The notes below the pieces were generated by a model. It made no database searches. It was not told the DNA's origin and worked only from the letters and a program-made list of their open reading frames with translations. DNA of 64,000 nt from Marispirochaeta sp. (GTDB lineage: Bacteria > Spirochaetota > Spirochaetia > JC444 > Marispirochaetaceae): NCBI GenBank assembly GCA_963676835.2, contig CAXXFF010000004.1:288001-352000 (forward strand). The letters are read 5' to 3'. How positions within the stretch are numbered: the first letter of the stretch is position 1; every line of letters starts with the position of its first letter. Shown piece by piece: positions 5,060 to 57,885 of the stretch. Both the position numbers and the translations under genes were made by a program.

Positions 5060-5458
5060 TCAGGTGATCTGTAAATAGAAATGCAGGAACTCTGCTGGAG
5101 ATACAATCATGTCTGATGCAGGAAAGTGTTTGGAATTTCCAGTAACAAGTTTTTCAGCTGATCCCGATATTGCGACTTCATAGAAGGCACGGTCATCCTC
5201 GTCCGGAAAAGTTTCGGCCAAAGGAGCTGCTGTTACAAACAGCGATTCATGCTGAATAAAATCAAGCAGGGATTGTATCCACTCCTTTTTAAAACCGAAC
5301 TTCGGTCGTTGCAGTACTTCTGTGTATTCAAGCAATATGCGGTTGTCCACAGCAAGTTTTACACTTCCATTTAAAACCAGGCTGAGAATCGCAGCAGGAG
5401 AACCTGAAGGATTGAGCAGTCCCGAAACAAGGACATTGGTATCCAGGTCAATCGTCAT
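5060..5458 (-). CDS. PIN-domain toxin
   Basis: DTNVLVS...D-DD...LVTGNSKHF. Confidence 0.88.
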   Translation of the reverse strand: MTIDLDTNVLVSGLLNPSGSPAAILSLVLNGSVKLAVDNRILLEYTEVLQRPKFGFKKEWIQSLLDFIQHESLFVTAAPLAETFPDEDDRAFYEVAISGSAEKLVTGNSKHFPASDMIVSPAEFLHFYLQIT

Positions 5459-5745
5459 CAGGACTTTTTACCTGCCCGATACTCTGCTATCTCCGCAGCG
5501 ATATCTCCATCACTCATATTACCCGCGCCGCTCTTAATAGAGTGCATCTGCATCTGCCGTACTGCATTAACTGCGCGGGCTTGCCGGACCGCAGAGAGGG
5601 TTTCTTCCAAATTGGTATCATCTAGGGGTGTCATAAGGGCGATGGGTTTACCGTTATTGGTAATTATCATCTCCTGCTCTTCCGGAAGGTCTTTCCAGAT
5701 TTTTGCCGGGGTGGTGCGTAAATCGCGGACAGTAATGAATCTCAT
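5458..5745 (-). CDS. Phd/YefM-family antitoxin
   Basis: ITVRDLR...IITNNGKPIA; coupled to PIN gene. Confidence 0.88.
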   Translation of the reverse strand: MRFITVRDLRTTPAKIWKDLPEEQEMIITNNGKPIALMTPLDDTNLEETLSAVRQARAVNAVRQMQMHSIKSGAGNMSDGDIAAEIAEYRAGKKS

Positions 5746-21419: not shown

Positions 21420-21922
21420 ACCCTTCGCAGCAGCTTCTCAAAGGTGCCTTTTATAAGATCCCCGGCATAGCGGGAATGGCTGGTCCGGGCATCAAGCCAG
21501 TGAACGATCAGGTGATCATCATCCAGATCCAGGGTAATGGTTCCGGGAGTCAGGGTTATGGAGCTGGTCAGGGCAACCCGGGCAATATCCGTCTTAAGGT
21601 GGGTGCGAAAATGGACAATTCCGGGGTTTATGCGTCCCCGCAGAATATTGAGAAGAACCTTGAAACTGGCCACATACATATTGAAGATGAGTACCAGCAG
21701 AAAGACGACAAACATATGCGGCCGGGGAAGGTGGGCCCGGCGGCCGGCTTCGGACTCTTCAATAAACTGCCGGTAGGTAAGCAGGGAAACCAGCAGACTT
21801 GCAACACCGCCGGCAACAAGCGAACCGGAATCCAGGGACCAGGTAAAGAGCAGCCAGCCTCCGAAAAGAGAGAAAAAGGTAATGAAAAAGCGGACCAGGG
21901 CCCAGCGGGTTTCAAGCCTCAT
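21410..21922 (-). CDS. mrpE: Antiporter subunit E
   Basis: INPGIV, SITLTPGTIT, LIVHWL. Confidence 0.9.
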   Translation of the reverse strand: MRLETRWALVRFFITFFSLFGGWLLFTWSLDSGSLVAGGVASLLVSLLTYRQFIEESEAGRRAHLPRPHMFVVFLLVLIFNMYVASFKVLLNILRGRINPGIVHFRTHLKTDIARVALTSSITLTPGTITLDLDDDHLIVHWLDARTSHSRYAGDLIKGTFEKLLRRVWL

Positions 21923-22380
21923 TTACTCTCCCTGCTGATAAAAGCCGCCATTACCTCCTCTGCTGAGGATGCCGCCAGAAGAGCATTGCAGAAGGTACGG
22001 TCGTGGAGGTACCGGGCGAGCCGGCTGAGAACCTTCAGGTGTCCCGCTTCATCCCCTTCCGGACCAATGAGCAGGAAAAAGAGGGCCACCGGCTGATTAT
22101 CCACGGCATCGAATTTTGCCCCCTCAAGCCTTCTTCCGAAAACAATGCGGGTGTCGGCAACCTGGGAAGTGAAACAGTGGGGAATGGCAATGCCCGAACC
22201 GATGCCGGTGGTATTGATCTTTTCCCGCTTCTTCAAATCCCGCACAATTTCATCGGGCTTTGCAAGCTCGGTACTGCGGGCGAGGATATCAACCAGTTCC
22301 CGTAAAATATCCGGTTTGCGTCTGGACTTCAGAGACAACTCTATACCTTCAATGGTAAGAAGTTCGTGCAGCAGTGCCAT
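21919..22380 (-). CDS. PTS EIIA (Fru/Ntr-type) domain protein
   Basis: RE...TTGIGSGIAIPH, FDAVDNQPV, HLKVLSRLAR. Confidence 0.9.
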   Translation of the reverse strand: MALLHELLTIEGIELSLKSRRKPDILRELVDILARSTELAKPDEIVRDLKKREKINTTGIGSGIAIPHCFTSQVADTRIVFGRRLEGAKFDAVDNQPVALFFLLIGPEGDEAGHLKVLSRLARYLHDRTFCNALLAASSAEEVMAAFISRESK

Positions 22381-22718
22381 CAATCCTCCTCCACCAGTCC
22401 CGCAGCCCAGTCCACAGGCAGGGTAAACAGAATTCCTGTTCCGGGATTGTCCAGACCGCCGCAAATCTCATTCAGCAGACTGTGAAGCCTTGGAACCAGG
22501 GACTCATTCTGAACAACGGAAAAAATGGTTTTGTTATAGGGTTTATTCCCTTTCATGAACTCTTTGAATCCTGCAAAAAGGGGTACCTCATAGGTTAGAA
22601 ACCGGCCCATTCCCTCGGAGTCAAGGATGGTTCCTCCGGAAATTCCTACTTCCGCATATGCTTCCAGTACCTGTTCAAGGAGTTCTTCACGATTCAGTAC
22701 AAACACTACAAGCTTCAT
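22380..22718 (-). CDS. PII-like protein
   Basis: GGTILDSEGMG, GTGILFTLPV. Confidence 0.8.
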   Translation of the reverse strand: MKLVVFVLNREELLEQVLEAYAEVGISGGTILDSEGMGRFLTYEVPLFAGFKEFMKGNKPYNKTIFSVVQNESLVPRLHSLLNEICGGLDNPGTGILFTLPVDWAAGLVEED

Positions 22719-22826
22719 ATCTGCTTTCCCGCGGCCGCCGGCTAAGGGCGGTTTACTGATATGTTTTAAGGTACCCGGTGACTGGAGGGGAGTCAATGGA
22801 ATATTCTGGCCAGAATCAGTTGAGAA

Positions 22827-23282
22827 TCAATTAAGATAGGTACTGAAGCTGTCAAAGATATGATAGCGCCTAAGGTCCGGAAGATTACCGATTACTATCC
22901 GGTTTTCATATTCCACCCAGGCGTGGGCTTCAAAGGGTTCATCCCCCCCCATGGCAACTCCAACTTTAAGCTCAACAGAATAGCCCTGACGGCGGCATAG
23001 AGTATATGCAGTAAAGGCCCGGGGCAGACAGTTGTAGGTTCCGGGAAGCAGCCTCCCCCATATTTCAACCCAGCGGCAGGTATCAACAACACCTGCGTCG
23101 AATCCACCGGCTGGAGACTTCTCCGCCTGCTGCTTTAAACGGCTTACGGCCTGCTGAAAAGGGTATCGGCGGAGAACCAGCCTTGTGCTGAAAAGCATCA
23201 TCCCCGCCTGGAGAAACGCAGCCTTCCCCCTGGAGGGAAGCGCGTAAAAGCGGCGGATTTTATTAAGCAAGCGTATCCACAA
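22827..23282 (-). CDS. Lasso peptide B2-type leader peptidase (start approximate)
   Basis: Transglutaminase-like NCLPRA...GV...AHAWVE; coupled to B1. Confidence 0.9.
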   Translation of the reverse strand: MWIRLLNKIRRFYALPSRGKAAFLQAGMMLFSTRLVLRRYPFQQAVSRLKQQAEKSPAGGFDAGVVDTCRWVEIWGRLLPGTYNCLPRAFTAYTLCRRQGYSVELKVGVAMGGDEPFEAHAWVEYENRIVIGNLPDLRRYHIFDSFSTYLN

Positions 23283-23538
23283 GACCTTCTTCTCCAAGTT
23301 TCTCCGCAAGGGCGAGAATATCCTCCCTGCACTGATCTTCTGCAACATCGAATTCCTGCTGAACCAGGGAACACAGACCTGCAAGGGATTCAGCCTTAAC
23401 AATATTCTTCCAGATAAAAGCTCCTACTTCATTGAGACTGAAATAGAAACCACGTTCAACATGCATGAGCACCATTTCACCGTTTACTTCGGTATGAATA
23501 ACCCCTTCCCGCTGCTGTATCCGTGTATTTAAATCCAT
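23263..23538 (-). CDS. PqqD-family RiPP recognition element (lasso B1)
   Basis: GEMVLM...YFSLNEVGAFIW...EFDV...C..D...L.EEGL. Confidence 0.93.
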   Translation of the reverse strand: MDLNTRIQQREGVIHTEVNGEMVLMHVERGFYFSLNEVGAFIWKNIVKAESLAGLCSLVQQEFDVAEDQCREDILALAEKLGEEGLVDTLA

Positions 23539-23656
23539 AGATCGGCTTCCTTCTTCTTTTTATGATACCCTTGTATTCTAATGAAAAACACAAAAACGTA
23601 AAGCATTGCCCCGGGAGGGCTTCAAGCAATACTGAAGCCATAGTAGTATAAGGGGC

Positions 23657-24868
23657 ATGAAAAAAACAGCAGAAGAAGAAATACTGATCGCACTGACTGC
23701 GGATAGAACCGACAGGGCAGTGTCAATTATAAAAGCCGAAGATCCGGATTACCGGAAACTGCTTCAATTAGCGGCGAAGCACAAACTTCACGGTATTACC
23801 GCCCAGAAACTGCTGGATATTTCCCGGCAGACTGGAATTGAACTGTCCGAAGCCGATATTACCGGAACCCTCCAGGCGGCGGTGGCCATGAATATGCAGC
23901 TGAAAGCCGGGTTTCTTGGTGTAAAGGAGATGCTGAAAAAAGAGCAGGTTGATTTCCTGCTGATAAAAGGCTTTGCCCTGGATCCGTCCCCTTTGAGGGC
24001 AATGAATGATATCGACATCCTTATCCGGGAGGATAAAATTCGTCAGGTTTTTGAGGCAATGACCGCCGGGGGCTACACCTACATGGGCAGTAATGTCATG
24101 ACAAAAGAGGAATTTGCCGACCCCTTTTCCACCCTCCACTGGAACAACCAGTTTCAGTTCAGATCGCCCCGGGTACCGGCGGATATTGAAATTCACACAG
24201 AACTGTTTGAACGGGACAGAATACGGCTGGAACGGCTTGACCGGTTTCTGGACAAGGCTGAGTTTTTCTGGGAAAACCGCAGATACCGGAAAGACCTCGA
24301 CTGTTACATACCGTCTCCGGAAGCAAATCTTGCCCTGCTGACCATCCACTGCACCACAAAACGTTCACCCGCCCACAACACCTATATTCTTCGCCATGCT
24401 TACGACCTGCACGCCCTGCTTGGGGAAAATCGTGACATGGAGAATATAGTGAATATGGAAAGATTTCTCTACCTCTGCAGTGAGTGGAAAATCGGCTACT
24501 ACGCCTATACTGCCTTCCGGCTTACAGCTCTGGCCCTTGATCTGCCGGATATCCTTGAAAAAGCTGAACTGTTGAAACCGCTCTTAACCAGGCGGGAGCT
24601 GATCCTCTCCAACCTGCACCTCAACTGCTACCGGGGCCTGGGAGATGCATCTTTTTTACGGCGGAAACTGTTTGCCCTGTTTATGCCCTTTGCCATAGGG
24701 GGCAGCGTAAAAAAAGGGGTAAGCTGGTACAGGAAAATACTCTTTCCCCCGGCATGGTACCAGGAGGAGCGGTACGGCATAAAAAGAAGTTCTCCCTTCT
24801 TCTTTCTCAGTTATATCTACGGACCCTTTGTTTTTCTGTGGCGGCGACTTACAGGGCTGAGTGAATAA
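23657..24868 (+). CDS. Nucleotidyltransferase-family protein (lasso-cluster type)
   Basis: LLIKG...RAMNDIDILI...IEIH. Confidence 0.85.
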   Translation: MKKTAEEEILIALTADRTDRAVSIIKAEDPDYRKLLQLAAKHKLHGITAQKLLDISRQTGIELSEADITGTLQAAVAMNMQLKAGFLGVKEMLKKEQVDFLLIKGFALDPSPLRAMNDIDILIREDKIRQVFEAMTAGGYTYMGSNVMTKEEFADPFSTLHWNNQFQFRSPRVPADIEIHTELFERDRIRLERLDRFLDKAEFFWENRRYRKDLDCYIPSPEANLALLTIHCTTKRSPAHNTYILRHAYDLHALLGENRDMENIVNMERFLYLCSEWKIGYYAYTAFRLTALALDLPDILEKAELLKPLLTRRELILSNLHLNCYRGLGDASFLRRKLFALFMPFAIGGSVKKGVSWYRKILFPPAWYQEERYGIKRSSPFFFLSYIYGPFVFLWRRLTGLSE

Positions 24869-24907
24869 GAAAAATGTACAGGGAAAAAAGCACAAGTAAA
24901 GAGAGGA

Positions 24908-26734
24908 TCAGGACTCTTTTATCTGACGCAGCTGGGTATGATAGAGCCCTGCATAATAGCCGGCTGCCTGAACAAGCTCATCGTGGGAGCCCTCCTCTAT
25001 TACCCGGCCGCCCCGCATAACATAGATTCGGTCCGCCCGGCGTGCAGCGGCAATCTTGTGGCTTACCAGAAGCAGACTGCCTCCTCCCACAATACCCCTT
25101 ATATTGTCGATAAAATCTGATTCCGAGGGTGGATCAAGCTCCGCGGTGGGCTCATCGAGGATAGTAAAGGGTGCTCCCCGGAAAACGGTACGGGCCAGAG
25201 CTACTTTTTTCCACTGACCTCCGCTCAGTTCCGCACCGTCTTCGAGCCAGCGGCCGAGGACAGTCCCGTATCCGTCGGGTAAAGCCTTTAGAAACTCATG
25301 GGCGCCGACTTTTTCCGCCGCCTCATGCAGGGCAGAATTATTGTCATTGGTTATATCACCGTAGCGGATATTCTCAGCGGCGGTATAGTAGTAGTGGGTA
25401 AAATCCTGAAAGAGCACACCCAGATTTTTACGATACTCCTCAGGCTCCAGGCTGCGCAGATCGGTGCCGTTCAGGCAGACCCTGCCCTCATCGGGTTCAT
25501 AAAACCTGCAGAGCAGGTTGATAAGGGTACTTTTACCTGCACCGTTGTCTCCCACAATGGCAACAAACTCGCCGGGGGCTATTTTGAGTGAAACCCTGTC
25601 GAGAACCTTGTTTGCGGTTCCGGGGTAATGAAAACTGACGGATTCAACCGAGAGACCCCGGCTGTCATCAATAAGCGGTCCATCGCCGCCGGCTTTACCC
25701 TCACCTGTCGCCTCTTTTACCTTTTCAACCTCCACCGGCAGATTCAGAAACTCAAAAACCGCCGACAGGTATAAATTGGTCTCATACAGACGGGCCACGC
25801 CCCGAAGCAGATCGGACATGGCCTGCTGGCCCCGCTGGATAGCCTGAAAGAAAAGTACAAGATTTCCCAGAGAGGTTCCGCTGGTAATGCTTGTGTAGGC
25901 AAAATATCCTAAAAGCCCAATGGTAATGAGCGACTGGAATGCAACGGCAAAGAATTCACCCGCCGCCCGGCGGCCGGTAAGAGACAGAAGCTCTCTGCGG
26001 AGCCTGATTCTCCAGGAAGAGGCCTTCTCCTGAAAATGGTCCTGCAGACCGTTGATACGGTTTTCCCGTACATTGGTTTTATCTGTAAGCAGCCAGTTAA
26101 GATAAAAAACATGCCGTTCCGAGGAGGTCTGCTCCATTCGCCAGGCATAGATCCTGGCAGACGAGGAGAGAAGCACCAGAGCCACCGGCAGTGCAGAAAC
26201 TGCCAGAAGCAGAATGGTAAACCAGGGAAGAGTGTAAATAAGCAGCCCCGCAATACCGGCAATGGAGACAGCGGAGCTTATGAGGCCGGTTACAATATCT
26301 ACAATCTGGGCAGGACGGTAGGGCGCTTCCGCCTGAGCCCGGTGAAGCTTGTCGTGAAACTCGGGCACCTCATAATAGGCAAGATCGAGCTCCACCGACT
26401 TCTGTTGAACCACACCCTGCATATAGTCGCTTAATACCTGCCCCTGCACCTGACGGAGAAAATTGCCCCCGGTGCGGAACAGGGCGGACAAAAGGAGCGC
26501 TGCCCCGGTAAGCATAATTACCGGCAGAATCTCCGCAAAGCCGCCGCCGGCCGCCAGGGTATCCACCATGAGTTTTACCGCATAGAGGGGAACAAGGGGG
26601 ACAATCCCCTGAAATGTCATAACAGTAACTGTAAGCAGGCTTAAGCCGGGGCTGCTTTTCCAGAGCAGCCCGATACCACGGGAAAATACGCCGGCCCCTT
26701 TCCTGAGGCGCAGTATGCGGCCGGAAAGGTTCAC
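24908..26734 (-). CDS. ABC exporter, fused permease/ATPase
   Basis: GDNGAGKST, LSGGQW, LDEPT; N-terminal TM domain. Confidence 0.93.
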   Translation of the reverse strand: MNLSGRILRLRKGAGVFSRGIGLLWKSSPGLSLLTVTVMTFQGIVPLVPLYAVKLMVDTLAAGGGFAEILPVIMLTGAALLLSALFRTGGNFLRQVQGQVLSDYMQGVVQQKSVELDLAYYEVPEFHDKLHRAQAEAPYRPAQIVDIVTGLISSAVSIAGIAGLLIYTLPWFTILLLAVSALPVALVLLSSSARIYAWRMEQTSSERHVFYLNWLLTDKTNVRENRINGLQDHFQEKASSWRIRLRRELLSLTGRRAAGEFFAVAFQSLITIGLLGYFAYTSITSGTSLGNLVLFFQAIQRGQQAMSDLLRGVARLYETNLYLSAVFEFLNLPVEVEKVKEATGEGKAGGDGPLIDDSRGLSVESVSFHYPGTANKVLDRVSLKIAPGEFVAIVGDNGAGKSTLINLLCRFYEPDEGRVCLNGTDLRSLEPEEYRKNLGVLFQDFTHYYYTAAENIRYGDITNDNNSALHEAAEKVGAHEFLKALPDGYGTVLGRWLEDGAELSGGQWKKVALARTVFRGAPFTILDEPTAELDPPSESDFIDNIRGIVGGGSLLLVSHKIAAARRADRIYVMRGGRVIEEGSHDELVQAAGYYAGLYHTQLRQIKES

Positions 26735-27735
26735 CGTACCACCTGAGAGCGGCCCGGGGCGGCATTAAGAAACGCTATAACATCAGGCAATCGTTCATAG
26801 CCTTCGGGAATGTTCAAAATCTGAACAGGAACCTGAGCCGCCACGGCACCTATCATGCCCAGACGTTTCTGTCCCCGGTCTACCGCATCCAGAAGCTCCG
26901 CTGCAAAGGCATGTCGAACCAGGGACATAACCCCTTCTGCTGCTCCTACAGGAGTTACAGAAGGTTGATCAGAGCCGTTTCGGCTGAGAAAATAGATTGC
27001 AGTAAGAGGTAGGTTATGAGAATAGAATGATCCTAACTGCTCACTGTGCTGCGGAACCTTCAGCCCCCGTTGGCCCGCCAGGCTTATAGAACCTACAGGA
27101 ATTTTAAGCTTTTCGAAGCCCGGGTGTATTTTTCCGTAATTATCCGGATTTCCCCCTAAAATTTTCAGCTGATGAGAAAAGAGCTTCATCTGGGGAAATC
27201 CCGGAAAAGCTGTAACTCCATCAGGTCCCACGGACAAAGCCAGAATATCATCAGTTACCAGGGGATACCCCCCTGCGACACAGGCGGTAGCCAGGGTGGT
27301 TTTACCGGTGCCGGAATCTGCAATAAAAGCGACGCAGCCGTCTCCTGCCTTGACGGCCGATGCATGCAGCATAAGAATACCCTGCCGCTCCAGCCAGAAG
27401 GACATAACATTGCCCACAAAGAAGATCTCAATAAGATATTCAATATCCGGCAGCAGAGGATGGGCGGTAATCTCATTACCCCGCATTTCAAATCCGCAGA
27501 CCCCGGTTATGTAGAGGGTCTCGCAGGTTTCGGAAAGAAAAAGCTCCACCCGGCCCCCCTCATAGTTTTCCACCGGGGCACGGACCCCTTCCGGAGTGTA
27601 CTCCGGGTTTACGGGCAGCACGGAAAAAGAGAGATCTACTTCGCCCCGGGGCTCCTCCGGAGGCAGGAGATTGAAAGTAAAGGGAAAGGATGAAGCGAGA
27701 TGCGCTCCGTAAAGCATGTAACGGGATTCATTCAT
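26731..27735 (-). CDS. HPr-kinase-like peptide kinase (lasso kinase type)
   Basis: LHASAV, SGTGKTT, LVTDD. Confidence 0.85.
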   Translation of the reverse strand: MNESRYMLYGAHLASSFPFTFNLLPPEEPRGEVDLSFSVLPVNPEYTPEGVRAPVENYEGGRVELFLSETCETLYITGVCGFEMRGNEITAHPLLPDIEYLIEIFFVGNVMSFWLERQGILMLHASAVKAGDGCVAFIADSGTGKTTLATACVAGGYPLVTDDILALSVGPDGVTAFPGFPQMKLFSHQLKILGGNPDNYGKIHPGFEKLKIPVGSISLAGQRGLKVPQHSEQLGSFYSHNLPLTAIYFLSRNGSDQPSVTPVGAAEGVMSLVRHAFAAELLDAVDRGQKRLGMIGAVAAQVPVQILNIPEGYERLPDVIAFLNAAPGRSQVVR

Positions 27736-28933
27736 GTACAAGAAGCCCCTGTTCCTTCAAAGATGCGGCAAAATGCTCCAGATCCTTTCGAATCTCTTCC
27801 GGATCGGCATCGTAGAGGCCCGCGAGCTCTTCCGCGGCCTTTACGGTACTCTCTGCCCGAAGCAGTATATCCCACATATCCGCCGCTGTGTCTTCCAGAA
27901 GGAAACAATCTCTTCCCTGCTCTTCTCCGTTTTCGGTAAAGTCAGCCACAACAATGCGGTTTTCACCGATCCTGGCGGCCACAACTTCAGGGGCGGCAGT
28001 CCAGCCGGAAGGGCTGTCCTCATGCAGCTGAACAGTCCCCCGGTCTTCTCCTTCAAAACGGTTTCTAAAACAGCGCTGCGGAGGATAGAGGCGAAAGGCA
28101 AGTTCAATTTCGTCGGTAACGGAATTAATAAAGACACTTTCCGGTTCGCTCCAGGAGAAAACTATTGTTTTTGGATGACCTGTCCAGAGAACCTTTTCAC
28201 CTGATTTACTCTCCCATCCCGATTTCCACTGGGCATAGGTTTCTCCGTACATCTCCGGAGCCTGGTCCTGGTACTCCATGGCCGCCGTAATGGGAAAAGA
28301 CTGATGAACTCCACCTTTACCGTTACAAAGAGATTCCGGTGCAGCCAGAACCGCAACATGAACCTCCCGGTGGGGCTCCTGCTTCTGTATGGATTCGACT
28401 GTCTGGCGGATTCTGAAGCCCGAGAAAACCGCATCGTCCACAAGCAGAATTGGACGCTTTACCGCTTCCCCTCCCCTGCTCCCGGTTTCGGTCAATTTCC
28501 CCAGGGCATAGAGCAGCAGGCCGCAGACGATATATCCACCCCGGGGAACAGGTCTAATCTCAAACTGAGCCAGCCTCTCACGGCCGTATGTCCGGATAAG
28601 TTTCTCCGCAAGATCTTCCGCAAAATTTTCCGCCTCAGGGTAGCTGATATAGAGTGAATCTTTCAAAGTCTGGGGAATCTGGGTCGCCAGGCGGGCAATC
28701 AGTTCAACCCGCTCAGGAGATAAATCACCAAAAAGATAGATTCCTTCCTGCTCTTTTTTTTCTACATCATGGTGCAAACGAAGCACCATATATGCATCAC
28801 TCAGCCGGGAGTCCCGGTTCAGAGTATCTCCAAGTATCCGGAGAGCAGCGGCAGCATCTGAAGCGCCGGTCAGTTTTAAAAGGGATGAAGAATCTGTAGT
28901 TGTCGAGAATAGTTTAACTGCTTTAAATGACAT
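27728..28933 (-). CDS. PRTase-like domain fused to C-terminal PqqD/RRE domain
   Basis: VPRGG and ILLVDDAVFSG (PRPP-loop-like); C-terminal FLLEDTAADMW...LYDADPEEIRKDL..F...LKEQGLL. Confidence 0.7.
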   Translation of the reverse strand: MSFKAVKLFSTTTDSSSLLKLTGASDAAAALRILGDTLNRDSRLSDAYMVLRLHHDVEKKEQEGIYLFGDLSPERVELIARLATQIPQTLKDSLYISYPEAENFAEDLAEKLIRTYGRERLAQFEIRPVPRGGYIVCGLLLYALGKLTETGSRGGEAVKRPILLVDDAVFSGFRIRQTVESIQKQEPHREVHVAVLAAPESLCNGKGGVHQSFPITAAMEYQDQAPEMYGETYAQWKSGWESKSGEKVLWTGHPKTIVFSWSEPESVFINSVTDEIELAFRLYPPQRCFRNRFEGEDRGTVQLHEDSPSGWTAAPEVVAARIGENRIVVADFTENGEEQGRDCFLLEDTAADMWDILLRAESTVKAAEELAGLYDADPEEIRKDLEHFAASLKEQGLLVHE

Positions 28934-28966
28934 AAAAAACCGGGCACCATGTTACCACGGGCCCGG
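28934..28966 (-). terminator. Intrinsic terminator-like hairpin after the precursor genes
   Basis: Minus strand CCGGGCCCGTG-GTAA-CATGGTGCCCGG followed by TTTTTT. Confidence 0.7.
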
Positions 28967-29012
28967 GACCTCTATTCGTTAAGATTAATAGAAAAATAGT
29001 ATATCAGAGATA

Positions 29013-29198
29013 CTAAATAATACTGCTGGTTGTTTTAATTGGCGATCCGCCTTCTGAAACCGTACCGGCGCCGCTTCCTTCACTGCTGCTTCCCTTTCCA
29101 CTGCCGAAAAGCGCCTCGATAATGCCTGACTGCGTAAGATCGGCTACACTACCCCACTCTTTAATCTGCGGTTTCTGGTATTGCTTTTTTGCCTGCAT
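29013..29198 (-). CDS. RiPP precursor A1 (61 aa, lasso-type leader)
   Basis: MQAKKQYQKPQIKEWGSVADLTQ|SGIIEALFGSGKGSSSEGSGAGTVSEGGSPIKTTSSII; RBS AGGGAG. Confidence 0.88.
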   Translation of the reverse strand: MQAKKQYQKPQIKEWGSVADLTQSGIIEALFGSGKGSSSEGSGAGTVSEGGSPIKTTSSII

Positions 29199-29231
29199 AT
29201 TATTCTCCCTGAGATATATTCTCAATAAATA

Positions 29232-29260
29232 AGTGTATACCCCAATTTTACAGCGGTCAA
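29232..29260 (-). promoter_or_regulatory. Sigma70-like promoter of precursor A1
   Basis: TTGACC-N17-TACACT. Confidence 0.6.
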
Positions 29261-29345
29261 TGTTAAGATGAGAAAATAACCGGTATTTTTCAACTAAAGA
29301 AGGAGTTCCGTCTGTCTACCTGGTAAACAGACGGATAGCAGTAAA

Positions 29346-29489
29346 TTAATACTCGCCCCGGGGACCGACGATCTCGATCACATTCAATGACCCGTTACCG
29401 CCGACTCTTTCTGTCAGCTTGGTAACTGTTCCCCACTGCTTTACTTCAGGCTTGGTGTAGGTTCGTTTTTCCTGTTTTTCGTTCTGCAT
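29346..29489 (-). CDS. RiPP precursor A2 (47 aa, absent from ORF track)
   Basis: Hand translation MQNEKQEKRTYTKPEVKQWGTVTKLTE|RVGGNGSLNVIEIVGPRGEY*; RBS AGGAG; leader matches A1. Confidence 0.88.
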   Translation of the reverse strand: MQNEKQEKRTYTKPEVKQWGTVTKLTERVGGNGSLNVIEIVGPRGEY

Positions 29490-29521
29490 CTTTTTCTCCT
29501 TGAAAAGTTTTTAATGGGTAA

Positions 29522-29550
29522 AGTCTGCACGGTGTCAGCATAATTGTCAA
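29522..29550 (-). promoter_or_regulatory. Sigma70-like promoter of precursor A2
   Basis: TTGACA-N17-CAGACT. Confidence 0.5.
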
Positions 29551-46108: not shown

Positions 46109-47194
46109 ATGAAAAACAGCTTTAAGGATATTCGCCTTTATAAGGCAGTTTCAACCATAAGCAAACCAATTGCAGATTCCACCCACACCATCAGCACCAT
46201 CGCCTTCAATGTAGTAGAGGTGGAGCTTGAAAGCGGTGTTACCGGACAGGGATATCTGTTAGCTTTCCACTACTCTCCCAACGCCATTGCCGGTGCGTTG
46301 AAAGACATACGCACCCATATTCTCGAAACAGGTTATGAGGTTCAGGAAACTGTACGGCTGACAGAGGACTATACTATTGAAACCGAGTACTTCGGCAGTA
46401 ACGGTCTGCAGAAATGGGCCCTGGCGGCAGTTAACGTAGCCATGTGGGATGCCTGGGCCAAAACTCTGAACACCCCTATCTGGAAGCTGCTGGGTACGGG
46501 GATGAAGAAAATCCCCGTTTACGGTTCCGGCGGCTGGCTCTCCTACTCCGATGAGGAACTCCTGGATGAGGTTCTGGGTTATAAAAAACGGGGCTTTCCT
46601 GCGGTAAAAATAAAGGTGGGTTCAAAACAGGGTGTTGCCCACGACTTGCACCGCCTTAAGAAATGCCGGGAAGCCCTGGGACTGGATGTACGCATTATGA
46701 TGGATGCCAACCAGGGGATGGATGTGCCTTCCGCTATTGAACTTTCGGAAAAGGCAATGGACATTGGTATTCAATGGTTTGAAGAACCCCTGAAGAATAC
46801 CGACTATGCAGGTTACCAGCTGCTTCGGGGGAAATCGGGCATTGCCATTGCCATGGGAGAACGGGAGTACGATACCCAGACGTTAAAGGCCCTTATTGAG
46901 AGGAATGCCCTCGATTTGTGGCAGCCGGATATTATCCGCATCGGCGGAGTTGAAGGCTGGAGGGATTCGGCTGCACTGGCGGTGCAGTACAATATTCCTG
47001 TGCTGCCCCACTACTATAAGGACTACGATGTTCCTCTGCTGTGTACTGTACCTAAGGCCTTCGGGGCTGAGTCTTTCGACTGGATTGACGGGATTATTGA
47101 CAATACCATGCGGATTGAAGATGGCTGGGCGTATCCCCGGGAAGGTGCGGGATGGGGGTTCAGCTTTAAGAAGGAGTTTCTGGAGGAGATTTAA
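46109..47194 (+). CDS. Mandelate racemase/enolase-superfamily acid-sugar dehydratase
   Basis: KIK, MDANQ, WFEEP, GERE, QPD. Confidence 0.9.
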   Translation: MKNSFKDIRLYKAVSTISKPIADSTHTISTIAFNVVEVELESGVTGQGYLLAFHYSPNAIAGALKDIRTHILETGYEVQETVRLTEDYTIETEYFGSNGLQKWALAAVNVAMWDAWAKTLNTPIWKLLGTGMKKIPVYGSGGWLSYSDEELLDEVLGYKKRGFPAVKIKVGSKQGVAHDLHRLKKCREALGLDVRIMMDANQGMDVPSAIELSEKAMDIGIQWFEEPLKNTDYAGYQLLRGKSGIAIAMGEREYDTQTLKALIERNALDLWQPDIIRIGGVEGWRDSAALAVQYNIPVLPHYYKDYDVPLLCTVPKAFGAESFDWIDGIIDNTMRIEDGWAYPREGAGWGFSFKKEFLEEI

Positions 47195-47741
47195 GGTCGC
47201 AAAACGACCGGGGTCTGTTACATGAGATGATATTCACAATTAACTGTTCATTCTTATACAGACCCCAACAAGTTTACCAGGCATCATTTAAACAAGTCCC
47301 ATCCGCCCAGGCCTTGCATCTTTCCACATAGAAAAACCGATATCAGCATTCTATCTTAAATTTTTTAATGGCAAAGCTATTGTTGCAGAGTTATACTGCA
47401 GAAGTATAACTGTAACTTTCCGACTGTTAATACTACATACTAAGGTAAATTATTATGCATAGCGAAGGTTTTTATTTCGTTTTTACCATTCCCAATAACT
47501 TATATATAAAAGTGGTTAAGTGATTATGTTATATACAAAATTTTTCGAAATATGAAGTATTTTCAATCGAGTTTTCTACTGGTGAAAAAAATTGAAGTTT
47601 ATCCTCATTGAAGATATAATTGGATTGAAGTGTGGTTTTCAGACGAATGAAGAACTTCAGGAGATGCAGAACAAACATAGGCTGTTTATAAATTAACCAT
47701 ATATATGATTAATTGGATAATTTCGGGTAAATGGGAATAAT

Positions 47742-48323
47742 ATGAAAAATAAATTACAAGTGTTCGGAATTATAGTGTTGTCTTCTATTATTTCACTGGG
47801 TTGTGTTACACAACAGACATCCGATGAACCTATGTATCCCGTAGAAGAATATAAAATAGAGGACGATTCTGAATGGCAATCGTTAAAAGAAGATGAAAAA
47901 GTCTCGCCGAATGACACAGACGGATTTCCCGAAAATATCTTTGAAGTGGCGTTCGGGAAACTGCTTAATAGTAAGGAAACAACGTTATATTTCTATAAGT
48001 TTAGAAACACTGATGTCGACTTGCGTCAGAACCAGGAAGATGCCGCCCGACATATGTTAAATCTCAAAGAAATTGGCTTTTCTGAAACTATTGATCCCAA
48101 GGCAGCTGATTATATTTTAGAGGCCTCTTTTAAAAGAACTGTTTCAGAAATAAGATCAGGCACCCATAGTATTACAGATAGAGAAATAACTATCAACTAC
48201 AGATTGATCGAAACAGGTGATAGTGTAGTCGTAGCTGAAAACAGATTTTTTCTACGCTATTATATGCTATCAGTAGACTACGAAATTGTAGATGAGATTA
48301 TTGTTCAGAAGATATGGCAGTAG
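47742..48323 (+). CDS. Hypothetical lipoprotein (cassette 1)
   Basis: Lipobox-like SLG-C. Confidence 0.7.
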   Translation: MKNKLQVFGIIVLSSIISLGCVTQQTSDEPMYPVEEYKIEDDSEWQSLKEDEKVSPNDTDGFPENIFEVAFGKLLNSKETTLYFYKFRNTDVDLRQNQEDAARHMLNLKEIGFSETIDPKAADYILEASFKRTVSEIRSGTHSITDREITINYRLIETGDSVVVAENRFFLRYYMLSVDYEIVDEIIVQKIWQ

Positions 48324-48376
48324 TTGAGTAGAATTAAAACGATCAAAACCAAATACATACTTGTTAGATAAATTGT

Positions 48377-48547
48377 ATATAACAAGCAATTGGAGCAGAC
48401 ATGGCTACTGTCATGGTTTGTGCAGTAACGGAAACCAGGTGAATGTAAGTTTCAGGTGATTCCGAGCTGAATCCGTAGTAAAATGGGATAGAGTTACAGC
48501 ACAAACCACGCCAGCTTAACGCCACGCAGCTCAATTGGATGTTATAT
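48377..48547 (+). repeat. attC site 1 (171 bp)
   Basis: ATATAAC-N5-ATTGGAGC...GCTCAAT-N5-GTTATAT. Confidence 0.9.
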
Positions 48548-48606
48548 TTACTTTCAGAAAATTTAGTAGTAAAATATCGGTTGTAAGGTAATAAGGGTTA
48601 GCCGAT

Positions 48607-49536
48607 ATGGATGAAAAGCTTCTATCGAGCATAGAAGGCAAGAAACGAGAACTTGATAAACATAGGCCGCTGAATGCTTCAATCTCGCGGAAATTGCATG
48701 AACAACTCGTATTAGAATGGACATACAACTCAAACGCAATTGAAGGTAATACTCTCAGCCTGCAGGAAACAGAAGTCGTCCTGAATCAAGGCATCACAAT
48801 AGGTGGAAAATCGGTTAATGAACACCTTGAGGCGATTAACCATAAAGAAGGCATTGAATTCCTCAATACAGTTATTCAGAAGAAAGAAGATCTTAGTGAC
48901 AGCATAATCCGTGAATGTCATAGGCTTATTCTCAAAGGAATTGATGATTTAGAAGCTGGTGCGTATAGAAGAACCAATGTAAGAATAGTAGGAGCGCGAT
49001 TGATACCACCTCAGGCAATAAAAGTAAAGCCTAAAATGGAAGAACTCATCGCCTGGTATTATGAAAACCGATATTCAATGCCAATTGCAGTACTTGCAGC
49101 TCAGTTTCATTATAAATTTGTATGCATACATCCCTTTATTGATGGTAATGGAAGGGTAGCACGTCTTCTTATGAACCTTATTCTAATGGCAAATGGTTAT
49201 CCACCAGCAGTAATCTTGAAAGTGGACAGGAAAAAGTATTATCGGGTACTAAATGAAGCGAATACAGGAAATGAGGAATCGTTAGAAGATTTCATAGGAA
49301 AATCCATTGAACGAACTCTTATCATATATCTGAACAGTATTCAGCCGAATACTGATGAAAAACAAGGCTTCATCAATCTTAAAGAAGCGTCACAGTATTG
49401 TGATTACTCCCAGGAATACCTATCTCTTCTCGCGCGAAAAGGTAAACTCTCGGCAATTAAGCTAAATAAGGAATGGGTTACAACCCGTGAAGCGCTTGAA
49501 GAATATGTAAATAGCCAGAATAAGGTGAATAATTGA
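48607..49536 (+). CDS. Fic-family protein with C-terminal HTH-like region (cassette 2)
   Basis: HPFIDGNGRVAR; N-terminal SNAIEGN inhibitory motif. Confidence 0.93.
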   Translation: MDEKLLSSIEGKKRELDKHRPLNASISRKLHEQLVLEWTYNSNAIEGNTLSLQETEVVLNQGITIGGKSVNEHLEAINHKEGIEFLNTVIQKKEDLSDSIIRECHRLILKGIDDLEAGAYRRTNVRIVGARLIPPQAIKVKPKMEELIAWYYENRYSMPIAVLAAQFHYKFVCIHPFIDGNGRVARLLMNLILMANGYPPAVILKVDRKKYYRVLNEANTGNEESLEDFIGKSIERTLIIYLNSIQPNTDEKQGFINLKEASQYCDYSQEYLSLLARKGKLSAIKLNKEWVTTREALEEYVNSQNKVNN

Positions 49537-49541
49537 AAAAA

Positions 49542-49714
49542 ATATAACCAGCAATTGGAGCAGACATGGCTACTGTCATGGTTTGTGCTAATAAAGATAA
49601 GTCTTGAAATGCTCTTTCCAGGTGATTCCGAGCTGAAATCGTAGTAGAATGTATGAGTAGTTGCGGCACAAACCACGCCAGCTTAACGCCACGCAGCTCA
49701 ATTGGATGTTAAAT
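49542..49714 (+). repeat. attC site 2 (173 bp)
   Basis: ATATAAC...GCTCAATTGGAT-GTTAAAT. Confidence 0.9.
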
Positions 49715-50040
49715 CGCCATTGAGAAAATGTATCAGGCCCTGCGCTGAAAACGCATGGAAATGTGGGTCACATGACAGGATAATCGAAATGGTTGGATCT
49801 ACTTGGATTAACAATTTATCGGGGAAGAATAGGGCCCTCCGATTGTTTATGGGCAAGATCCGGGTAAAGGTATAGAGATTTCAGGTGATATCCAGGTAAT
49901 GCACCCGATGAATAAACAAAATGAAAGTTCTGCAAGGGCCATCTTTTTGAATGGTCGTGCGCTTCGAAATCTAAAAGTCATCCAACCTATGGCTTCGTTT
50001 TCCAAGTGCGTTATGTAAGGCATCACAATGTCGGTTTAAC
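49708..50040. other. Gene-less cassette body, copy 1 (cassette 3)
   Basis: Bounded by GTTAAAT and GTTTAAC; no convincing ORF; near-identical to 51154-51486. Confidence 0.8.
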
Positions 50041-50208
50041 CAGCAATTGGAGCAGTCATGCCTATTGTCATGCTTTATGCAATGGAAGGTTGAAAGTGAA
50101 GGGCAAAGAATCCATGTGATTCCGAGCGAAAGTAATTGTATAATACTGGTTATAAAACAGCATAAAGCACGCCAACTTGACGGCATGCAGCTCAATTGGA
50201 TGTTATAT
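50034..50208 (+). repeat. attC site 3 (175 bp)
   Basis: GTTTAAC-CAGCA-ATTGGAGC...GCTCAAT-TGGAT-GTTATAT. Confidence 0.9.
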
Positions 50209-50459
50209 AGGAATCGGGGGTACAGATCAGATTCTGGGTGCCAATTGCACCATTACGCAGTATAAAAAATTACTGTAGGTAAAGGGTTCAGTTGAATTAC
50301 AGAGAAGAAGATTATCGAAACTTAAAAAAGGATTAGATTAACGTTATTGATTATAGTTTTCACTCCTAAACAAACTGAAGAAATGATTTATAAAACTATA
50401 CTATATTTTCAGAATGTTAGTTTCAAACCAGAAATAGAAAATCTAAGGAGAGGTAAAAA

Positions 50460-50972
50460 ATGGAAATCAACATAAATATTGTTGTCGTTCTCGTCGTAAT
50501 ATTTGTAATTGCCTTTGCAGGAAAAATTAAAAAGAATTCAAATAAGGAAGAAGAAAATAACGGAGACAATTCTGAGAAAGCTATTGAAGATGAATTTATC
50601 GATTATAATGATAAATTTACGCAGGCTAATAGAAGCGAACCTGTTATGCCGTTAGTCAGGACCTTTTCTATTGAAGATAAAATGATGCTACGGTCAATGC
50701 TGGATGCTGAGAAAATACCAACATATGTAAAGGGTGAACATGTCAATAACATGCTTCCTGGTATTGGTGTGCAAGGTTATTCAGATAGCATTATCTACGT
50801 ATATAGTAACGACTATGAGGATGCAGAAAGTATTGTCCATGATTATGTTCAAAATTTAATTGATTCGATTGAACCGGAAAGGGAATCAGGATTTGTTGAT
50901 ATTGTAGCTGTAGTAAATACAGCACCAACAAAATATAATCAATACATTCCAGAAATTATAAAAAAGAAATAA
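50460..50972 (+). CDS. Membrane-anchored DUF2007-like protein (cassette 4)
   Basis: N-terminal TM; LRSMLDAEKIP...IYVYSNDYEDA; RBS AGGAGAGG. Confidence 0.7.
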   Translation: MEININIVVVLVVIFVIAFAGKIKKNSNKEEENNGDNSEKAIEDEFIDYNDKFTQANRSEPVMPLVRTFSIEDKMMLRSMLDAEKIPTYVKGEHVNNMLPGIGVQGYSDSIIYVYSNDYEDAESIVHDYVQNLIDSIEPERESGFVDIVAVVNTAPTKYNQYIPEIIKKK

Positions 50973-50989
50973 ATTAAACGCGAGATTCT

Positions 50990-51160
50990 ATATAACCAGC
51001 AATTGGAGCAGTCATGGCTACTGTCATGGTTTGTGCAGTAACGGAAACCAAATGAATGATTATTTCAGGTGATTCCGAGCTGATATTGTAGTAGAATGGA
51101 ACTGAGTTGCAGCACAAACCACGCCAGCTTAACGCCATGCAGCTCAATTGGATGTTAAAT
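50990..51160 (+). repeat. attC site 4 (171 bp)
   Basis: ATATAAC...GTTAAAT; close copy of attC1/2. Confidence 0.9.
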
Positions 51161-51486
51161 CGCCATTGAGAAAATGTATCAGGCCCTGCGCTGAAAACGC
51201 ATGGAAATGTGTGTCACATGACAGGAAAATCGAAATGGTTGGATCTACTTGGATTAACGATTTACCGGGAAAGAATAGGGCCATCCGATTGTCTATGGGC
51301 AAGATCTGGGTAAAGTTATAGAGATTTCAGGCGAGTTCCTGGTAATGCACCCGATGAATAAATAAAATGATAGTTCTGCAAGGGCCATCCTTTTGAATGG
51401 TCGTGCGCTCCGAACTCAGAAAGTCATGTAACCAGTGGCATCGTTTTCTAAGTGCTGGATGTAAGGCATCACAATGTCGGTTTAAC
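51154..51486. other. Gene-less cassette body, copy 2 (cassette 5)
   Basis: Gap-free homolog of 49708-50040. Confidence 0.8.
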
Positions 51487-51660
51487 CAGCAATTGGAGCA
51501 GACAAAACCTATTGTCATGGTTTTTGCTAACGGTTTTATCCTGGTGAATTGGAATAAGTCGCTTTCCAGAGTAAAAACTGTTGTATAATGCTGTAATCAG
51601 GCAGCAAAAACGCATGCCAATGCCTTCGGCACGGCTTTGCAGCTCAATTGGATGTTCTAC
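51480..51660 (+). repeat. attC site 5 (181 bp)
   Basis: GTTTAAC...GCTCAATTGGAT-GTTCTAC. Confidence 0.88.
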
Positions 51661-51948
51661 TGACTGGCGGTATGTTCATTTATCTTCCATGTAAAAATCA
51701 GTACCTGAAAATGCAAAATTAATAATATTTCCTCCGGAAGGGAGAGTAAATATTGGGCTTAAAACCCCAGTGGGAGAATAGGTATTGGGAATGAATGGTG
51801 GTATATTGAAAACAATCGAATTTTCATGAAAATATTTTAAAATAGATGTGAAGTTTACTTATGGTATGAGCCATATTTAAGGTTGAGTAATATTCTATAG
51901 GATAAATCAAAATATTGTTGTAATTTTATCAATAAAGGATAAAAACGA

Positions 51949-52857
51949 ATGAGAACGTACATGATTTTTTTAATAACTCTTGCTATTCCTCTTAGTCTTT
52001 TTTCAATCGATTTTATAGGGAAAACATATGAGGATCACATTTGGATGGGATTCGATGGAGAAAGAAATACAAGTGGAAGTCAAAGAATATCATTTGGTGA
52101 TGATGAGGTCCTATACGAAATCGATGATAATAGTCATAAGGTAAAATCTGTCGTTTATGACGAATATAAATATAAGTATAAAGTTATAGATAATTGTGGT
52201 TTGACATTTATTGTTCTTGATAGCAATACGAAATGGCTGGCTATATATAATGAAGATATCCTAGCCCTCTATGATGATAATGATTACCCCTTTTTTGTTG
52301 GCTTTAATACAGAAAAAAATTATAGCATTTATGGAATTGGTATTTTCCCAAGGAATAGTGGGGATTATACTGCTTCTTCTTTTTTAGTTGAAGAAATAAA
52401 CGGTAAATTAATTAAGTATTCTCCTGATGATATTACAAATCTTTCCAATCCTACTCCTTGGGTAGAAGGAGTCGATGGAAATGGAATAGGAGAGAAATTA
52501 TACTATCGTCTAAAAGATGAAAGTTACATGAAATTAGTACAAGTATCAGGGGAGTTAGATTATTATTCAAAGTGGACATTTTTTATATCTAATGGGTATG
52601 TTTCATACAGTAGACCAGATTTATATAAAGGAAATAATAGAATTAAAGAAATAAGATTTACTCAACCTGAAACAAATGAAACGTATATCACTAACATTCT
52701 TGATACACCAAATATTCAAAAAATAAGTTTTCCTGATGATGCAAAAATGGATGGAAATATAATTATTATGGAGATCACGGATATATACGAAGGTTCAAAA
52801 TATCAAGATACATGCGTAAGTTTTATAATACAATATGAAGAGAAAGAAAGAATTTAG
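51949..52857 (+). CDS. Secreted protein with C-terminal NADase-type glycan-binding-like domain (cassette 6)
   Basis: Signal peptide; PWVEGVDGNGIGE, NGYVS..RPDLY..NNRIK, IYEGSKYQDTC. Confidence 0.7.
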   Translation: MRTYMIFLITLAIPLSLFSIDFIGKTYEDHIWMGFDGERNTSGSQRISFGDDEVLYEIDDNSHKVKSVVYDEYKYKYKVIDNCGLTFIVLDSNTKWLAIYNEDILALYDDNDYPFFVGFNTEKNYSIYGIGIFPRNSGDYTASSFLVEEINGKLIKYSPDDITNLSNPTPWVEGVDGNGIGEKLYYRLKDESYMKLVQVSGELDYYSKWTFFISNGYVSYSRPDLYKGNNRIKEIRFTQPETNETYITNILDTPNIQKISFPDDAKMDGNIIIMEITDIYEGSKYQDTCVSFIIQYEEKERI

Positions 52858-53031
52858 AATCTATTTCAAAAATACTGAGAATTTGCTTTCTGAAGGGAGA
52901 ATAGTTCTGAACACTTAGATAAACATCTGATGGTGGTATACATTTGGGGGTCCTTTCTATTTTACTAAGTGATTAATAATACTTCAAAGAGACCCGAAGA
53001 AATTAGCGGAGATGTTTATGTAATTATGGCA

Positions 53032-53140
53032 GTAGAACAAGCTTTTGAAACTGTCAAATCTTTTTGTCATGTAAAATGCGATACGCATTTTTCACGCCAA
53101 ACCCTTCGGGACAGATTTGCAGCTTAAAAGGGCGTTATAT
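53032..53140 (+). repeat. attC site 6 (109 bp, different sequence family)
   Basis: GTAGAAC (exact complement of GTTCTAC at 51654)...GCTTAAA-AGGGC-GTTATAT. Confidence 0.85.
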
Positions 53141-53381
53141 AGTCCCAAATTTATAATACAAAAATAGTCATAAAATGTTGCATGCTGGTTATTTATTGAG
53201 CAGTTCATAAAATATTCGCAATCCAGAGAATGGAGTTGTGGAAGCAAAATTGGTGCTGCAAAACGCCTTTAAAGAAGTGAAAAAACTCCGAATGTTGCTT
53301 GTAAGTTAGAATACCGCTAAAAGCACCTATAATAAAGATATTCGATGTTCATCAGTCGTGGCTAAGCTCGAATGAAAAAAG

Positions 53382-53410
53382 TTGACGTTGTATATACATC
53401 TGTGTATTAT
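53382..53410 (+). promoter_or_regulatory. Cassette-internal sigma70 promoter of TA pair
   Basis: TTGACG-N17-TATTAT, 5 nt before ATG; palindrome TGTATATACA in spacer. Confidence 0.75.
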
Positions 53411-53415
53411 TACCT

Positions 53416-53682: not shown

Positions 53683-53683
53683 T

Positions 53684-53995: not shown

Positions 53996-54090
53996 CCAGC
54001 AATTGGAGCAGTCAAACCTACTGTCACGATTCTTGCATGCGCAAGAATACGCGCCAGCTCAACGGTTTGTAGCTCAATTGGATGTTATGA
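53990..54090 (+). repeat. attC site 7 (101 bp)
   Basis: ATTTAAC-CAGCA-ATTGGAGC...GCTCAAT-TGGAT-GTTATGA. Confidence 0.88.
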
Positions 54091-56680: not shown

Positions 56681-56718
56681 GATGAAGATGACAACTACAG
56701 CTCAGCAAATTCCATTCA

Positions 56719-57863: not shown

Positions 57864-57885
57864 AACAACAGGTACAAGGATAGAT

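Follow-up and report, generated by a model that had tools for sequence, protein, structure and literature searches.

A cyclase-less, lasso-related gene island of a marine spirochaete that probably encodes linear, decorated peptides

A 64,000-nucleotide stretch of DNA from the marine spirochaete Marispirochaeta sp. (the window) contains, at positions 22827-29550, a 6.8-kb gene island predicted to make peptides of ribosomal origin that are modified after translation (RiPPs). A first-pass annotation had listed in it a B2 peptidase, a B1 RiPP recognition element (RRE), a nucleotidyltransferase, an ABC exporter, a kinase, a fusion of a phosphoribosyltransferase (PRTase) with an RRE, and two precursors. 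All of these are present at the positions given there, as confirmed by the list of open reading frames (ORFs) and by Pfam and NCBIfam scans. On the minus strand, the order of transcription is precursor 2, precursor 1, PRTase-RRE, HprK-like kinase, ABC exporter, B1, and B2, with the plus-strand gene NTP_transf_5 lying between the exporter and B1. The flanks are unrelated operons, as had been stated: Mrp/Mnh antiporter subunits followed by PTS-EIIA-like and P-II-like genes on the left, and, on the right, genes for an SBP/DUF1858 protein, for a GTPase of cobW type, and for an ABC ATPase. Below, G000 denotes the genome that holds the window, G004 the genome of a sister species, and L008 the island locus in the latter.

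Precursor 1 (29013-29198, minus strand) has 61 residues; its leader ends in ...YQKPQIKEWGSVADLTQ and is followed by a 38-residue core, SGIIEALFG...SSII. Precursor 2 (29346-29489, minus strand) has 47 residues, with a leader ending in ...YTKPEVKQWGTVTKLTE and a core of 20 residues. Both match the lasso leader motif YxxPx[LIV]x3Gx5Tx, with Thr at position -2, and precursor 1 scores above the cut-off of the lasso_leader_L3 family NF033521 (22.5 bits against 19). Precursor 2 is less certain, because it has neither a family match in Pfam or NCBIfam nor a counterpart in the sister genome. Shine-Dalgarno sites precede both start codons, GGGAGA in the case of precursor 1 and AGGAG, 6 nt before the ATG, in that of precursor 2. 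A protein search with precursor 1 returned only the query itself, a result that says nothing about rarity, since small precursor genes are rarely called.

The ring of a lasso peptide needs an acceptor Asp or Glu at core position 7, 8, or 9. Neither SGIIEALFGSGKGS...SSII (precursor 1) nor RVGGNGSLNVIEIVGPRGEY (precursor 2) has an acidic residue at these positions, and the same holds for the core of L008. Glu is found at positions 5 and 17 of core 1 and at position 12 of core 2. The C-termini are ...SSII and ...RGEY, neither ending in Ser. The L008 orthologue of precursor 1 is 68% identical and keeps both ends of the core: the N-terminus SGIIEALFGS and the C-terminus GSP[VI]K...SII are shared, while the middle is variable and rich in Gly and Ser.

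Two stable hairpins accompany the precursor genes. The first (28934-28975, minus strand; minimum free energy -23.7 kcal/mol, z = -4.67) lies between precursor 1 and the enzyme genes and is followed by a run of six U and then by the start codon of PRTase-RRE; L008 has the same shape with different stem letters. The second, a 13-bp hairpin, follows precursor 2 (29307-29335, minus strand; -19.4 kcal/mol, z = -4.99). For both, none of 200 shuffled sequences folds as stably. A hairpin behind the precursor gene is the usual means by which RiPP operons keep precursor mRNA in excess, and the element at 28934-28975 is likely an attenuating terminator.

The PRTase-RRE fusion (27728-28933, minus strand) is composed of an N-terminal domain, a type I phosphoribosyltransferase fold at residues ~90-290, and an RRE resembling lasso B1 proteins at residues ~309-401. 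In the single-sequence scan, PqqD is matched with an E-value of 5.6e-9. The AlphaFold2 model, built from a 116-row alignment, has a pLDDT of 93.7 and replaces an earlier fold from a shallow alignment, which was discarded (pLDDT 50.9). Residues 309-401 superpose on TfuB1 (6jx3_B) with Z 10.1 and rmsd 2.0 over 85 of 85 residues, and on TbiB1 with Z 9.8; the family profile matches TbiB1 as well (E = 4.6e-16). Residues ~90-290 align best (VIA-align) with 5vog (Z 11.2) and with the HGXPRT structure 4z1o (Z 10.5), many purine, orotate, and uracil PRTases follow at Z 8-10, and the top Foldseek matches of the model are purine PRTases. Six residues, R131, G132, G133, D166, D167, and W261, are invariant in the 116 sequences, and the segment LVDD..SG aligns to the phosphoribosyl pyrophosphate (PRPP) motif of orotate phosphoribosyltransferase. 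Among the 116 aligned family members, PqqD is found in 115, Pribosyltran (PF00156) in 32 (E ≤ 0.01, best 7.1e-9), and PRTase-CE in 26. The model thus shows a predicted leader-binding domain joined to a PRTase domain whose PRPP site looks intact.

The kinase gene (26731-27741, minus strand) overlaps the PRTase-RRE gene by 14 nt. Its single-sequence matches are weak, consisting of HprK_rel_A (TIGR04352; E = 3.1e-6, 26.5 bits against a cut-off of 200) and the PEPCK P-loop. A family profile of 50 sequences matches HPr kinase/phosphorylase structures (E = 1.7e-5), and the P-loop Lys147 is invariant among these sequences. The pairing with PRTase-RRE is widespread: in 46 of the 54 related loci (described below) with at least 1.2 kb of downstream sequence, a kinase homologue starts within 1 kb downstream of PRTase-RRE. 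A complex prediction for the two proteins gave scores of 0.00 and 0.24, against a mark of 0.32, and carries no weight either way.

The remaining four enzyme genes are those for B2, B1, NTP_transf_5, and the exporter. The B2 leader peptidase (22827-23402, minus strand) is a transglutaminase-like Cys protease matched by PF13471 at residues 69-180 (E = 2.2e-22) and lies above the cut-off of lasso_biosyn_B2 (NF033537; 81.3 bits against 33). Its translation contains Cys in CLPRAF and His in HAWVE, and it is the sole PF13471 match in G000. The start of B2 is uncertain, the ORF as listed sharing 140 nt with B1. B1 (23263-23538, minus strand) is a stand-alone PqqD-like RRE (PF05402, E = 8.9e-20) that remains under the cut-off of NF033536 (66.8 bits against 80); its nearest solved structures are a lasso PqqD-family chaperone (9x90_B, E = 1.7e-8), TbiB1 (2.8e-6), and TfuB1 (6.4e-5). 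NTP_transf_5 (23657-24868, plus strand), divergent from B1, encodes a nucleotidyltransferase-family protein (PF14907, E = 4.5e-21) for which the sequence search found no solved relative. The ABC exporter (24908-26734, minus strand) is a fused permease-ATPase of MsbA type (PF00005 ABC_tran, E = 3.8e-32), whose gene shares 4 nt, at its start, with the end of the kinase gene; its top NCBIfam rows are MsbA-type and all under their cut-offs (best 240 bits against 602).

No lasso cyclase is encoded with these genes. The first-pass annotation had reported that an asparagine-synthetase-like cyclase is absent from the 64 kb and had suggested a genome-wide profile search. We searched all of G000 (4.43 Mb in four contigs, 97% complete) with PF00733, and none of the five matches lies in the window. 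Three are weak PP-loop matches of at most 23 bits, one of them an NAD synthase. The two strong ones are proteins of 666 and 658 residues with full GATase domains, which score above the cut-off of the AsnB family TIGR01536 (498 and 441 bits against 267) and below that of the lasso cyclase family NF033535 (230 and 208 bits against 525). By this search, G000 has AsnB-type proteins and no lasso cyclase. Furthermore, G004, a single 4.5-Mb contig, has no PF00733 match above 22.3 bits, and tblastn finds no cyclase in the 10 kb to the left or to the right of L008. No further macrocyclase family, whether ATP-grasp, YcaO, radical-SAM, or any other, turned up in Pfam scans, which covered the six enzymes, the two precursors, 11 flanking ORFs, and 51 ORFs of at least 90 residues outside 19.8-32.7 kb.

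The two AsnB-type genes are located at G000:C2:1-16000 (L006) and G000:C4 ~551000-571000 (L007). One, in an exopolysaccharide context, is on another contig than the island, among genes for a sugar transferase, an AMP ligase, and a phosphopantetheinyl transferase. The second, ~210 kb from the island, sits between a non-ribosomal peptide synthetase (C-A-T) and a 1867-residue hybrid of AMP ligase and polyketide synthase with a thioesterase domain.

In the genome collection, PRTase-RRE has one close relative, the L008 protein of the same genus. By tblastn, the six enzymes and a single precursor all recur at L008, with gene order, orientation, and flanking genes unchanged. The seven shared island genes are 59-83% identical, without internal stops, at a dS of 1.2-2.0; their dN/dS ratios are 0.08-0.22, against 0.03-0.10 for the flanking genes, all of them rough values, as dS is near saturation. 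For the individual enzymes, dN/dS is 0.17 (PRTase-RRE), 0.16 (B2, 69% identical), 0.11 (kinase), 0.11 (NTP_transf_5, 70% identical and in the same orientation), 0.10 (B1), and 0.08 (exporter, 83% identical). The persistence of intact frames at a dS above 1 between two species points to purifying selection. Three other species of the genus (G002, G005, and G006) have no island between the two flanking genes, which are separated there by ~160 bp; this defines the cluster as a discrete 6.8-kb island. It is present in two of the six genomes of the genus, and PRTase-RRE was found in none of 400 other Spirochaetota sampled.

More distant relatives place the island within a family of lasso clusters. 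A profile search of 1.84 billion representatives yielded 641 relatives of PRTase-RRE at E ≤ 1e-3 and 353 at E ≤ 1e-30. We collected 88 related loci, eight from genomes and 80 from metagenomes (the best 80 of 106, from a scan with an 11-row alignment). An Asn-synthase-like cyclase is detected by tblastn in 59 of them, mostly within 2.5 kb; as a further 26 loci, with under 3 kb of upstream sequence, are too short for a verdict, the proportion is 59 of 62 judgeable loci. The three without a cyclase are L008, L014, and L059. Pfam confirms the order cyclase, small ORF, PRTase-RRE, kinase in L009, L011, L012 (PRTase-RRE by tblastn), L013, and L015. Precursors with the leader motif lie upstream in 60 loci and give 56 distinct cores, 53 of which have Asp or Glu at positions 7-9, a typical core being TGxTxPGxDxKxGS...; a terminal Ser is found in four of the 56. 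The first-pass annotation had proposed checking whether the cyclase-free architecture is conserved in other genomes: it is kept in the sister species under purifying selection, while nearly all judgeable loci among the more distant homologues have a cyclase.

The window and L008 proteins form a pair (SH-aLRT 100) in a quick, unrooted maximum-likelihood tree computed from 87 PRTase-RRE sequences. The pair lies inside a nine-row clade (SH-aLRT 100) together with seven proteins from outside the 88 loci (P0003/P0153, P0005, P0008, P0009, P0012, P0013, and P0014). This clade is sister (SH-aLRT 95) to a clade made up of six cyclase-bearing loci and a further protein, P0010, and the remainder of the tree is taken up by cyclase-bearing loci. 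The simplest reading of these sequences is that an ancestor with a cyclase lost this enzyme together with the ring acceptor, either within the spirochaete lineage or at a somewhat earlier point. With a cyclase in nearly all judgeable relatives and an acceptor in nearly all of their cores, and with the island nevertheless conserved under selection, the locus appears to be a selected cyclase-less offshoot of the lasso subfamily and not a decayed one.

Several of the related loci have features of their own. The order cyclase, precursor, PRTase-RRE, HprK-like kinase is seen in L009, L011, L012, and L015 (L015:4055-9406 and L011:7574-12270 are examples) and also in many loci of the series L028-L107. 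L014 has a PRTase-like gene without an RRE match and is treated as outside the family. L059 extends 6.8 kb upstream without a cyclase, and only 1 kb of contig follows its kinase; directly upstream of its PRTase-RRE/kinase pair, where relatives have cyclase and precursor, is a 535-residue ORF without a Pfam match (L059:4844-6451). The cyclase-bearing loci L011 (21 kb) and L015 (17.5 kb) have no B2 near the cluster, the PF13471 matches of their genomes being on other contigs or far away. A leader peptidase gene acting in trans is one possible explanation; another is that the cluster may have no RRE besides that of PRTase-RRE, L011 lacking a separate B1. Precursors beside PRTase-RRE at L050:158 and L061:1040 have Gly/Asn/Ser-rich cores with no Asp or Glu at positions 7-9. 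The L050 contig spans 1.7 kb, and L061 also has a ring-competent precursor and a cyclase; the two acceptor-less precursors may represent additional non-lasso substrates for these enzymes.

The gene content, the missing cyclase, the conservation and selection, the protein folds, and the lasso-subfamily ancestry lead us to regard the island, with appreciable room for doubt, as probably the functional descendant, now without a cyclase, of a lasso cluster with kinase and PRTase tailoring, and as giving linear, decorated peptides. In the pathway that we propose, the two small genes would yield precursors with a classical lasso leader, which would be bound by the RRE domains of B1 and of the PRTase fusion. 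With the leader still attached, the HprK-like kinase would phosphorylate Ser or Thr of the Gly/Ser-rich core, and the PRTase domain, probably using PRPP, and NTP_transf_5 would attach further phosphate-linked groups. B1 would then pass the peptide to the B2 cysteine protease, which would cut after the Thr-x of the leader. Lacking both a macrolactam synthetase and a core acceptor at positions 7-9, the pathway should leave the product linear, and the ABC transporter would export it. A like outcome, linear or otherwise non-lasso phosphorylated peptides that are exported, had been put forward in the first-pass annotation; cores that cannot form a lasso ring and the lack of a cyclase speak for it, whereas the nucleotidyl or phosphoribosyl groups that it named as possible additions are an inference, the PRTase fold and the invariant PRPP-site motifs being what the analysis shows.

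Parts of this pathway have parallels in lasso systems, in which B1 delivers the leader to B2 and kinases of this kind act on the linear precursor (PMC8498205, in the part of the text available to us, as for all citations of this article). In the same source, the pseudomycoidin nucleotidyltransferase adds hexoses to a phosphate. By analogy with this step, the kinase could make phospho-Ser or phospho-Thr, to which the PRTase would add ribose-5-phosphate. More broadly, we tentatively suggest that PRTase-RRE is a leader-guided peptide phosphoribosyltransferase that adds ribose-5-phosphate to (phospho)Ser/Thr of the core together with its partner kinase, that it is the signature of a large uncharacterised lasso subfamily, and that the spirochaete has this chemistry freed from the ring; taken as a whole, we would sooner doubt this proposal than rely on it. 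If true, peptide phosphoribosylation would be a modification not described for RiPPs, and the spirochaete island would stand for linear phospho(ribosyl)peptides of separate descent outside Bacillota.

For the PRTase domain itself, the main alternative is a regulatory, nucleotide-binding role. PRTase folds may also act as nucleotide-binding or regulatory domains. A wider form of this explanation holds that PRTase-RRE, NTP_transf_5, or both introduce some other defining modification, such as a ribosyl-phosphate bridge or a cross-link, or that the PRTase is a nucleotide sensor for the kinase, with the peptide perhaps a part of the envelope or of signalling and not a natural product for export. 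The conserved pairing of PRTase-RRE and kinase, with their overlapping genes, would fit such a scheme, as would the ppGpp-binding, PRTase-like protein 5vog as best structural match; the NTP transferase of a related system, moreover, showed no activity, its role and the final product being unknown (PMC13381572, available to us in part, as in all citations below). Invariance of the RGG of the pyrophosphate loop and of the acidic DD across the 116 sequences fits catalysis better than sensing, and an exporter with a leader protease fits a secreted RiPP. We regard this explanation as unlikely, though it keeps enough weight to be borne in mind.

That the island is the decaying, non-functional remnant of a lasso cluster that lost its cyclase would agree with the cyclases beside 59 of 62 judgeable PRTase-RRE/kinase relatives, with the absence of the island from four of the six genomes of the genus, and with the lack of precursor 2 in the sister species. 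Six enzyme genes and precursor 1 are, however, intact in two species at a dS above 1 with dN/dS of 0.08-0.22, and the catalytic and binding motifs, core termini, Shine-Dalgarno sites, and attenuator hairpin are all kept, which leaves decay very improbable despite the cyclases of most distant homologues. Least probable of all is a lasso peptide closed in trans by one of the AsnB-like proteins of G000 or by an unrecognised enzyme: in-trans tailoring of lasso peptides is known, for example by a PAD enzyme (PMC8498205), and the two extra Asn-synthase paralogues are in secondary-metabolite-like contexts, but both are AsnB-type and fail the lasso cyclase cut-off, the sister genome keeps the island with no Asn-synthase homologue, and the Glu residues of the cores are at position 5 or at 12 and beyond.

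A number of points weigh against the functional, linear-peptide reading that we prefer. The Pfam score of the PRTase in the window is below its cut-off (20.7 against 26.3 bits), and 5vog, the top structural match, is a ppGpp-bound protein of unknown function. The likeness of the kinase to characterised peptide kinases is a P-loop-centred match, and the window cores lack the terminal Ser of paeninodin-type substrates (PMC8498205); the paeninodin analogy does not place the phosphorylation site in the cores, where Ser or Thr would be the substrate residue. The near-saturated dS and the absence of precursor 2 from L008 count here too, as does the position of the seven closest non-genus relatives of PRTase-RRE outside the 88 loci. 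Finally, the island is known from sequence and predicted structure, and the chemical steps, their order, the modified residues, and the role of the product are all deduced from these.

The closest described system is that of the linear polyphosphorylated peptides (LPPs) of Bacillota, encoded by lppA/K/B/S/D/N (Popov et al., Nat Commun 2026; PMC13381572). LPP clusters contain a kinase, an RRE, an NTP transferase, and an exporter, but no cyclase. On expression, Ser3 of the 45-residue core, freed of its leader, carried one to four phosphates; the NTP transferase showed no activity. The authors describe LPPs as linear analogues of phosphorylated lasso peptides, restricted to Bacillota (PMC13381572). 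With such cyclase-free, lasso-related peptides in print, the designation of the island as a candidate new peptide class in the first-pass annotation was too strong.

Both systems lack a cyclase and share the YxxP RRE-binding motif of the leader and a patchy, island-like distribution; leader-cleaved linear phosphopeptides are the demonstrated product of the one and the predicted product of the other. A separate RRE, a kinase resembling HprK, an NTP transferase, and an exporter resembling MsbA are present in the island too, the kinase and exporter falling below curated cut-offs and being supported by profile and context. The differences are substantial. LPP clusters use a signal peptidase I of archaeal type (LppS) as leader peptidase, whereas the island has a lasso B2, and none of its six cluster proteins matches a signal-peptidase family in Pfam or NCBIfam. 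Judged by this peptidase, the guide feature in PMC13381572, the island does not count among the LPP clusters. The LPP leader consensus is YxxPxVLxHQxIxFETxxS (PMC13381572), whereas the leaders of the island, YQKPQIKEWGSVADLTQ and YTKPEVKQWGTVTKLTE, follow the classical YxxPxLx3Gx5Tx, so that YxxP alone is shared. The island adds PRTase-RRE, and the available text of PMC13381572 contains neither "phosphoribosyl" nor "Spirochaet". In addition, the host is a spirochaete, whereas LPPs were called Bacillota-only, and the PRTase-RRE/kinase pair comes from a different lasso subfamily.

With paeninodin and pseudomycoidin clusters the island shares the split B1/B2, the HprK-like kinase, a nucleotidyltransferase next to B2, and the ABC exporter (PMC8498205). 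Those clusters have a cyclase C and ring-competent cores ending in the kinase-site Ser, and the island has neither; its cores end in Ile or Tyr, and PRTase-RRE is extra. To the uncharacterised lasso subfamily it is linked by a PRTase-RRE with 25-34% identity, an adjacent kinase with 26-35% identity, the same lasso leader motif, and a Gly-Ser pair at core positions 13-14 of precursor 1, as in many cores of the family. The cyclase and the acidic residue at positions 7-9, present in 59 of 62 judgeable loci and 53 of 56 cores, respectively (most of the latter with a TGxTxPGxD start), are absent from the window and its sister.

The idea of a cyclase-free, lasso-like route to linear phosphopeptides is thus already in print, and the island would be a B2-dependent, PRTase-bearing, non-Bacillota counterpart of the LPP clusters, independently derived from an undescribed lasso subfamily. 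In the open-access literature searched, with one search judged by titles and abstract openings, we found no account of the PRTase-RRE family or of a lasso-linked phosphoribosyltransferase, and searches worded for a missing lasso cyclase returned nothing. If our reading is true, a second, independent lasso pathway has shed its cyclase in favour of linear tailored peptides, using the lasso protease and not a recruited signal peptidase, and it has done so outside Bacillota, the group in which LPPs were described as confined. The compact island, with six enzymes and two natural substrates, is experimentally tractable. The PRTase-RRE/kinase pair has hundreds of metagenomic members, and its chemistry, which may be new, is the point of greatest interest.

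Between the Mrp operon and the island lie a PTS EIIA-like gene (21919-22464, minus strand) and a P-II-like gene (22380-22796, minus strand). The two ORFs as listed overlap by 85 nt, and one start is probably mis-set. Elsewhere in the window, a type II toxin-antitoxin module, a pair of PIN-domain protein and Phd-YefM antitoxin, is located at 5060-5745 (minus strand). Two stretches at ~47000-54000 and 56000-62000 have a GC content of 0.32-0.44, compared with ~0.51 elsewhere, and look like foreign DNA. They hold a Fic/DOC gene (48607-49536), a gene for a protein with NADase-translocation F5/8 type C domain (51949-52857), a CopG-type antitoxin gene (53684-53995), several ORFs without a family match and, further on, GNAT acetyltransferases.

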